From: a virus
Taxonomy: Duplodnaviria > Heunggongvirae > Uroviricota > Caudoviricetes
DNA: 64,000 nucleotides
IMG/VR virus record: IMGVR_UViG_2721755711_000002
Direction: 5' to 3' (one strand)
Position numbers and translations under genes: made by a program. The notes under the pieces are model-generated. The model made no database searches. It saw nothing but the letters and a program-made list of their open reading frames with translations, and had not been told where the DNA came from. Position 1 is the first letter of the stretch, and every line of letters begins with the position of its first letter. Below, in pieces: positions 13,380 through 14,645 of the stretch.

Positions 13380-14015
13380 ATGTCTGTATTAATTTCGGGT
13401 GTGCTGACGGATGGCGCGGGACTCCCCATGTCCGGATACCATATTATTCTGAAAGCCAGACAGAATACATCCGCAGTGGTCATGAGAACGGTGGCTACAG
13501 TGATGACAGGTCCGGCAGGAGAATATGCTTTTGAAGCTCAGACCGGAAAATATGACGTTTATCTTCGGTCGTGTATTGAAAGGGAATACTGTGTCGGTGA
13601 TATTTCGGTTTACGACGACTCAAAGCCCGGCACGCTGAACGACTTTTTGACCGCTCTCGACGAAGGCGACCTCAAACCCGACGTGGTGAAACGCTTTGAG
13701 GAAATGGTGGCGCAGGCGCAGCAGGGTGCCGAAACTGCAACAGAAAGCGAACGACAGGCAGGGCAACATGCAGACGCTGCCGCCCGGGCAAAAGAAGATG
13801 TAAAAAAACTGGTGGAAGGTGTTCAGCAGAACGCCGACGCGGTTGCGGAGGGTAAACAACAGGCCGAAACTCTGGTCTCACAGGTTGAGGATACCGCCGC
13901 AGAGGTCAGGCAGGATGCTGAAGCCGCGAAAAAGGCCGCATCTGATGCAGAGCATGTCAGGGAGGATATTGACACTGCGTTATCTGCGACACTGAAAACG
14001 GCGAATCGCCTGTAA
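13380..14015 (+). CDS. Side tail fibre N-terminal domain protein (lambda Stf N-terminus-like), truncated at 211 aa
   Basis: MSVLISGVLTDGAGLP...YDDSKPGTLNDFL matches lambda Stf N-terminus; coiled-coil tail; stop TAA sits in the 8-bp centre of the palindrome. Confidence 0.6.
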   Translation: MSVLISGVLTDGAGLPMSGYHIILKARQNTSAVVMRTVATVMTGPAGEYAFEAQTGKYDVYLRSCIEREYCVGDISVYDDSKPGTLNDFLTALDEGDLKPDVVKRFEEMVAQAQQGAETATESERQAGQHADAAARAKEDVKKLVEGVQQNADAVAEGKQQAETLVSQVEDTAAEVRQDAEAAKKAASDAEHVREDIDTALSATLKTANRL

Positions 14016-14645
14016 ACGATTCGCCGTTTTCAGTGTCGCAGATAACGCAGTATCAATATCTGCTCTGGCCTGCTCTGCACCGGATGCGGCCTTTTTCGCG
14101 GCTTCAGCATCCTGCCTGACCTCCGCGGCGGTATCCTCAACCCGTGAGGCCAGATTTTCGGCCTGTTGTTTACCCTCCGCAACCGCGTCGGCGTTCTGCT
14201 GAACACCTTCCGCCAGTTTTTTTACCTCTTCTTTTGCCCGGGCGGCAGCGTCTGCATGTTGCCCTGCCTGTCGTTCACTTTCTGTTGCAGTTTCCGCGCT
14301 CTGCTGCGCCTGCGCCACCATTTCCTCAAAACGTTTCACCACGTCGGGCTTGAGGTCGCCTTCATCGGGGGCGGTCAGAAAATCATTCAGTGTGCCGGGC
14401 TTTGAGTCGTCGTATACAGCAATATCTCCAACACAGTACTCGTCGCGCCAGCCCTGCTTCAGATATACGCAGTATTTTCCGGTCTGCGCCTCAAAACAGT
14501 ACTCGCCACAGTTTCCTGTCACCACGTCGGCAACTGTGCGCATCACCACCTCTGAGGTGTTTACCCGGGATTTCAGAATTATGTGGCATCCGGACATGGG
14601 GATGCCTGCGCCATCAATCAGCGCACCTGATATCACTACAGACAT
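13980..14645 (-). CDS. Side tail fibre N-terminal domain protein (paralog of 13380..14015), 221 aa
   Basis: Same Stf N-terminal motifs; reads through the palindrome centre and ends 13980. Confidence 0.6.
   Translation of the reverse strand: MSVVISGALIDGAGIPMSGCHIILKSRVNTSEVVMRTVADVVTGNCGEYCFEAQTGKYCVYLKQGWRDEYCVGDIAVYDDSKPGTLNDFLTAPDEGDLKPDVVKRFEEMVAQAQQSAETATESERQAGQHADAAARAKEEVKKLAEGVQQNADAVAEGKQQAENLASRVEDTAAEVRQDAEAAKKAASGAEQARADIDTALSATLKTANRLQAIRRFQCRR

Follow-up and report, generated by a model that had tools for sequence, protein, structure and literature searches.

Invertible tail-fiber segments are known from Mu (the G segment, gin and gix), P1 (C, cin), and e14 (P, pin). In these systems, the tail-fiber genes have a constant N-terminal part and a variable C-terminal part, are cut where the two meet, and are associated with inverted repeats; a 2–4-kb segment carries alternative C termini and chaperones, an invertase gene lies adjacent, and the recombination sites are 26 bp long with a 2-bp core. 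The gix/hix/cix/pix consensus divides such a 26-bp site into two 12-bp half-sites, which are imperfect inverted repeats of each other, separated by a 2-bp core. Mis-oriented contigs between collapsed repeats are a further precedent: their junctions are unique to one assembly, their breakpoints fall at repeat edges, and flipping the contig yields the canonical order; a repeat copy is typically retained at each junction. Paired mirror junctions bounding an inverted segment are also described for snap-back and tandem-inversion-duplication (TID) events in Salmonella and for ODIRA in yeast (PMC4689423); they arise at short native inverted repeats, their arms derive from one template, and the segment they enclose ends up triplicated.

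The locus analyzed here lies in a 64,000-nt stretch of DNA (the window), which is the reverse strand of the Escherichia coli strain C5 chromosome, NZ_CP010122.1 (assembly GCA_001900535.1). At a mirror axis in the window (J1, 14012/14013), the heads of two side-tail-fiber (stf) genes abut, one from each of two prophages: PS on the left and PW on the right. Like Mu, P1, and e14, C5 has tail-fiber genes cut at the constant/variable boundary together with inverted repeats, but none of the other components of those systems is present around the join. As in the snap-back, TID, and ODIRA precedents, paired mirror junctions bound an inverted segment, with the partner axis (J2, record 3257750/3257751) outside the window; no native inverted repeat sits at the axis in C5, the arms come from two different genes, and no triplication is seen. 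The three traits listed for a mis-oriented contig are all found, but the ends in C5 are trimmed flush and joined without Ns. The genes themselves share a PF08400 N terminus and coiled-coil region with lambda Stf and phiP27 L56 and are the last genes of their tail operons, a placement also seen in phiP27, PapRG-04-4, F2_407_2_2, and STEC316; unlike lambda Stf and phiP27 L56, they lack a C-terminal part of ~265 aa and the head of the DUF4376 gene.

Source Record and Comparisons

For a window position w, the record coordinate is 3587600 − w. The intact relatives examined were phiP27 L56, PapRG-04-4, F2_407_2_2, STEC316, and a second intact stf copy within C5, designated B1. A literature search for CP010122, or for its sequencing and assembly, returned nothing.

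Two Side-Tail-Fiber Genes Cut at the Same Codon

The features on either side of J1 are as follows.

PS prophage: at serT/yccA, with its integrase adjoining yccA; lambda-like head and P2-like tail
9949..13355, + strand: end of the PS tail operon; in relatives, a full stf, DUF4376, and the prophage end come next
9949-11604, + strand: tape measure, PS tail operon
11601-12095, + strand: gpU, PS tail operon
12070-12288, + strand: gpX, PS tail operon
12279-13355, + strand: gpD, PS tail operon
13380..14012, + strand: stfA_N, first 633 nt (211 codons) of the PS side-tail-fiber gene
14013..14645, − strand: stfB_N, first 633 nt of the PW side-tail-fiber gene
14669..18546, − strand: end of the PW tail operon, with stfB_N downstream; order as in phiP27 and F2_407_2_2
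14669-15217, − strand: tail-fiber assembly protein, PW tail operon
15220-16713, − strand: 497-aa tail fiber, PW tail operon
16710-17336, − strand: 208-aa protein, PW tail operon
17320-18546, − strand: baseplate J, PW tail operon
PW prophage: at ompW, with its integrase (62870-64000) adjoining ompW at the far end of the window

The original prediction identified two open reading frames as N-terminal stf genes, and their coordinates are confirmed. The plus-strand frame (13380..14015, 211 aa) reaches 14015 only through a TAA stop made by the join, and the minus-strand frame (13980..14645, 221 aa) includes 10 extra codons past the join, in the antisense of stfA_N. A PF08400 phage_tail_N domain spans residues 1–133 of both products against a 134-position profile (E = 9.5e-57 for stfA_N and 3.4e-62 for stfB_N). 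Both genes are cut after nucleotide 633 (codon 211), and the C-terminal domain is absent from both; thus, the phage_tail_N domain expected of an Stf-like gene is present, and a complete gene with C-terminal domain and chaperone is not. In every relative examined, the intact homolog is 1425–1473 nt long (474–490 aa) and is followed by a DUF4376 gene and then by the prophage end, in agreement with the prediction that neither C5 gene has a receptor-binding C terminus.

The two heads are diverged and belong to two different prophage tail modules—PS at serT/yccA and PW at ompW—as had been proposed. Over its 633 nt, stfA_N shares 93% identity with the start of the PapRG-04-4 gene, which is 1425 nt long. 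The stfB_N sequence is identical to B1 of the same genome at 633/633 positions and to F2_407_2_2 at 632/633, and both of these genes run on to 1425 nt. The predicted absence of an att site between the modules holds; an integrase gene is present in the window (62870-64000), but it lies at the far PW end.

The Center of the Palindrome

Two features define the join at the nucleotide level.

13373..14652, no strand: full imperfect palindrome formed by the two abutted homologous gene heads
14009..14016, no strand: so-called spacer CCTGTAAA, centered on the J1 axis (14012/14013), each gene supplying four native bases

Alignment of the arms confirms the predicted inverted repeat. The arms 13584-14008 and 14017-14441 (425 nt) are 92% identical, their inner 35 nt are identical, and identity drops to 73–77% beyond them, as far as 13373 and 14652. 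A 29-nt core occurs exactly twice in the window, against zero copies expected by chance, and for the central 200 nt a hairpin is predicted with a folding energy of −111.5 kcal/mol (z = −24).

The 8-bp spacer that the original prediction placed at the center, with the plus-strand stop codon inside it, resolves differently. The stop codon is there, created by the join, but the spacer itself consists of 4 + 4 native bases. The left half of CCTGTAAA, CCTG, belongs natively to the end of the left gene (STEC316 reads AAT CAC CTG TCA), and its right half, TAAA, is the reverse complement of the right gene's native TTTA. Intact genes read across the cut point as ...ACG GCG AAT CGT TTA / TCA GAG... or as ...CAC CTG / TCA GAA..., where the slash marks the cut. 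Arg-Leu is encoded here by both copies, as CGC CTG in stfA_N and as CGT TTA in stfB_N, and three of the four positions flanking the axis are mismatched. With each gene ending at its nucleotide 633, register is kept and no spacer intervenes: J1 is a zero-spacer, in-register mirror join of two homologous gene heads.

A Partner Join and a Missing 957-bp Block

From the genes flanking J1, a second join was predicted ~316 kb away, and it was found at record 3257750/3257751. At J2, two DUF4376 genes meet head to head, each without its first 157 nt. The arms (L009 32348-32746 and 32755-33153) span 399 nt at 82% identity, and the join is set between yciE-'ompW-ORF6N on one side and serT (tRNA-Ser)-hyaA on the other.

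Alignment of the two broken modules with four intact ones showed that both lack the same 957 alignment columns, from stf nucleotide 634 to DUF4376 nucleotide 157. This block comprises the 3′ part of stf and the 5′ part of DUF4376; it is 97–99% conserved among intact relatives, versus 73–93% identity in its flanks. The J1 and J2 axes each lie at the first base that differs between the two copies, and no repeat copy is left at either join. The block is present in 5 of 5,426 E. coli genomes, and C5 has three intact copies, one of them at L008 12007-12963. Two more are inferred in C5.

Both joins are confined to C5, with J1 in 1/5,426 E. coli genomes and J2 likewise in 1/5,426. Other assemblies and read-derived contigs yielded neither the junction protein nor the neighboring gpD, and the junction open reading frame was found only in GCA_001900535.1.

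About 40 bp from J2, the ORF6N gene (L009 31729-32293; record 3256729-3257293) is frameshifted by an extra C, reading AACCTCGG versus AACTCGG in PapRG-04-4. No other indel occurs across 1.65 kb of 98% identity.

Gene Order and Ter Polarity of the 316-kb Block

The inverted block between the joins measures 315,837 bp (record 3257751-3573587) and contains hyaA...tonB-ompW plus the ompW prophage; its portion within the window is listed here.

14013..64000, no strand: whole PW prophage, down to the integrase (62870-64000) by ompW

In C5, the prophage pair is flanked by ...tonB-yciC-ompW on one side and by yccA-tusE-...-ompA on the other. In K-12, yciE and the trp operon come immediately after ompW, an order that PapRG-04-4 shares around its ompW prophage. 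Flipping the C5 block back restores ompW-yciE-trp, the K-12 order; yccA, serT, and hyaA are presumably adjacent in K-12, so that flipping also gives yccA-serT-hya. By these flanking chromosomal genes, the two modules now meeting at J1 belong in direct orientation, 316 kb apart.

Replication termini give a parallel result. In the replication fork trap, TerA arrests the same fork as TerD. In the record, TerA lies on the plus strand at 3231075 and TerD on the minus strand at 3491038, between narK and narG, with the same orientation relative to narG in K-12 as in C5. As written, the C5 sequence has TerA and TerD facing outward around 260 kb that contain topA, prs, hemA, prfA, and kdsA, with tus intact; this inversion of TerD against TerA seals 260 kb of essential genes from both forks. 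The terA and terD sites are among the four high-efficiency ter sites, ectopic ter/Tus complexes are reported to block forks permanently, and a single inverted ter is reported to have caused severe filamentation (PMC4999828, a review). The polarity problem disappears when the block is reversed.

The PW late genes (14013..41441, − strand, 27.4 kb) are 100.000% identical to the B1 copy in the Rac-site prophage (record 3111270-3138698), and this exact identity stops precisely at the J1 axis.

The second copy of the 27.4-kb region lies in the prophage at the Rac/ttcA-uspF site (L008/L010) and shows zero differences; the adjacent lysis region (41442-42518, 1.07 kb) has 65 differing positions relative to its own second copy. 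Two origins would account for the duplicate: gene conversion that took place between prophages very recently, or a finishing step that put one repeat in two places.

Origin of the Joins

Both joins are most likely, and on balance probably, the result of a genome-finishing error in which the 316-kb block was mis-oriented and the repeat trimmed. During finishing, the block would have been set backwards between two copies of the multi-copy 957-bp repeat; at both of its ends the repeat would have been cut back to the first nonidentical base and the ends joined. The actual chromosome would then carry two ordinary, directly oriented prophages, each with a full stf and DUF4376 and no palindrome, and the cause would be computational rather than biological. 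This account is the simplest for all the facts, and the question of a chimeric assembly, raised by the original prediction, is the central issue. It is favored because each half continues normally in intact relatives, because the predicted J2 was found with the same 957 columns missing and both axes at first mismatches, and because neither join holds a repeat, where homology-driven recombination would leave one. It is further favored by the restriction of J1 and J2 to one assembly among 5,426 genomes, with no independent genome carrying them; by breakpoints at repeat edges and a flip that restores K-12 order and Ter polarity; and by a block end flush with a 27.4-kb exact repeat, a type of region prone to finishing faults. 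Several points weigh against a finishing error. A 957-bp repeat should not break contigs in a pure long-read assembly, and J2 has unique flanks on both sides, so that it would be read-supported if the assembly were purely long-read. A one-base indel distinguishes two IS3 copies, suggesting a separate consensus per copy, as in long-read assemblies. In two other prophages the same pipeline put the repeat where it belongs, and we can name no standard assembler whose trimming and joining would follow this precise pattern. A search of ~290 kb of the record for other short-spacer palindromes returned J1 alone at a strict threshold, with no sign of a systematic artifact.

The alternatives invoke recombination in the cell. 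In the original prediction, the center was likened to the target of a site-specific recombinase, either a tyrosine recombinase or an invertase of the Gin/Hin/Pin type; programmed tail-fiber switching of the kind described above for Mu, P1, and e14 would then use the palindrome as substrate or yield it as product. The resemblance is superficial—35-bp inverted arms enclose eight asymmetric bases, and CCTGTAAAC resembles a gix half-site—and we regard this reading as very improbable. The arm, offered as a tyrosine-recombinase layout, is plain coding sequence (codons 200–210) that occurs once in every intact homolog, without an inverted partner; the central bases are native to each gene; and neither preexisting inverted arms with an overlap nor a partner site elsewhere was found. 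The center, CCTGTAAAC-GATTCGCC-GTTTTCAG, has 8 bp between AAAC and GTTT rather than the 2-bp core of a gix/hix site. No 26-bp site, pair of flanking sites with C-terminal cassettes, or adjacent invertase gene was found: as predicted, no invertase is annotated around the join (record 3505000-3672000; about 100 kb), and there are no alternative C-terminal cassettes between or beside the arms, which themselves account for both copies of the core in the window. The partner join J2 lies in another gene with unrelated sequence (TCTTCAAG, within DUF4376), and a search of viral and metagenome contigs for the mirror-join pattern gave no matches. In the relatives compared, each stf continues into a normal C-terminal domain with no palindrome, the outcome that the original prediction itself had set against its site. 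The recombinase-site reading is thus largely refuted, and there is no evidence here for a new recombination site or for tail-fiber switching. Ordinary inversion between prophages by homologous recombination, common in E. coli O157 and other strains, fits the presence of prophages with homologous tail-fiber modules at both ends of the block. It predicts hybrid N(A)-C(B) junctions of the same polarity with the repeat kept at both ends; the record has N-N and C-C junctions with 957 bp missing from both, and recombination between modules in direct orientation would delete rather than invert. This exceedingly improbable explanation is already refuted by the junction sequences.

A real, one-off illegitimate inversion in the C5 lineage is possible but unlikely. 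By this route, a U-turn or sister fusion of the snap-back, TID, or ODIRA type would be followed by recombination in the identical 957-bp block, yielding an inversion with perfect palindromes at its ends, and hairpin-driven deletion of perfect palindrome cores to the first mismatch cluster would then leave J1 and J2. Both joins are clean in a genome deposited as complete, and the copy-specific IS3 differences hint at a read-resolved assembly. The axes lie at 3-of-4 mismatch clusters, where a perfect hairpin stem would have an internal loop at its foot; uncatalyzed branch migration and mismatch-repair-limited pairing also halt at a first mismatch. Inverted junctions made by replication error are documented in other systems (PMC4689423). 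Against this route, about six successive events are needed, two of them exactly symmetric deletions, and the product, found in 1/5,426 genomes, has TerD inverted against TerA with tus intact plus a −111 kcal/mol hairpin. Snap-back arms come from one template and should match beside the axis, yet mismatches occupy three of the four positions beside each axis, and the right arm matches B1 at 100% as far as the axis; neither breakpoint, nucleotide 633 included, is the center of a native inverted repeat. We find it distinctly doubtful that the joins are real and that this wild bovine E. coli carries a 316-kb inversion with mirror joins at homology edges and a block deleted from both. Such an outcome would lie outside any standard recombination pathway and would imply U-turn replication with precise trimming of perfect palindrome cores.

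Other routes were considered and rejected. For homologous inversion via the inverted copy in a Mu-like prophage, the products predicted by reasoning differ from the record. A fold-back artifact or snap-back duplication of one gene does not fit arms that represent two genes (93% PapRG type and 100% B1), and deletion between convergent neighboring prophages does not fit modules that were 316 kb apart in direct orientation. Gyrase or staggered-cut exchange predicts a 2–4-nt offset or overlap, whereas the join is blunt and in register with ≤1-nt ambiguity. Chi-limited degradation was set aside as well; no Chi site lies to the left of the axis.

If a finishing error is the cause, a RefSeq "complete" genome contains a 316-kb mis-orientation and is missing two copies of a tail-fiber cassette, which calls for caution in prophage, synteny, and Ter-site analyses that use this region of NZ_CP010122.1. 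Palindromes of abutted paralogs are a useful flag for finishing errors. If the joins are instead real, C5 would be a natural case of an inversion whose mirror junctions coincide with homology edges, and of a reversed replication-fork trap compatible with viability, both relevant to the fields of genome instability and replication termination.

Other Features of the Prophages and Chromosome

Within the PS lysis region, outside the window, lie a 37-kb Mu-like transposable prophage and ISEc12 (record 3596400-3636500; L006, L007). The Mu-like prophage contains a complete, oppositely oriented stf and DUF4376 pair of its own, and a gin-like invertase is absent from it. The PS relative in PapRG-04-4 carries a ~10-kb element in its tail/head operon (L011, record 2858700-2869400) that encodes an integrase, a RepA-like helicase, a capsid, a decoration protein, and a small terminase; it looks like the insertion of a phage satellite (PICI-like).

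In PW, an LprI-family lysozyme-inhibitor-like gene with a signal-peptide-like start (18589-19335, − strand) and an AntA/AntB antirepressor gene (19668-20237, + strand) break the tail operon just upstream of baseplate J, in what looks like a moron insertion. Among the head-morphogenesis genes, 33976-35412 (− strand) is annotated as an anti-CBASS Acb1-family gene and is also present in the duplicate copy. The RefSeq annotation of the early/middle region includes a HigB/HigA-like toxin-antitoxin, hokD, a tRNA-Gly, and a TerB-family gene (coordinates, as listed together: 56701-57365; 50798-50953; 45118-45189; 43599-44024). At the tyrT/tyrV locus (L013 28396-28718), C5 has three tandem tRNA-Tyr genes, versus two in K-12.
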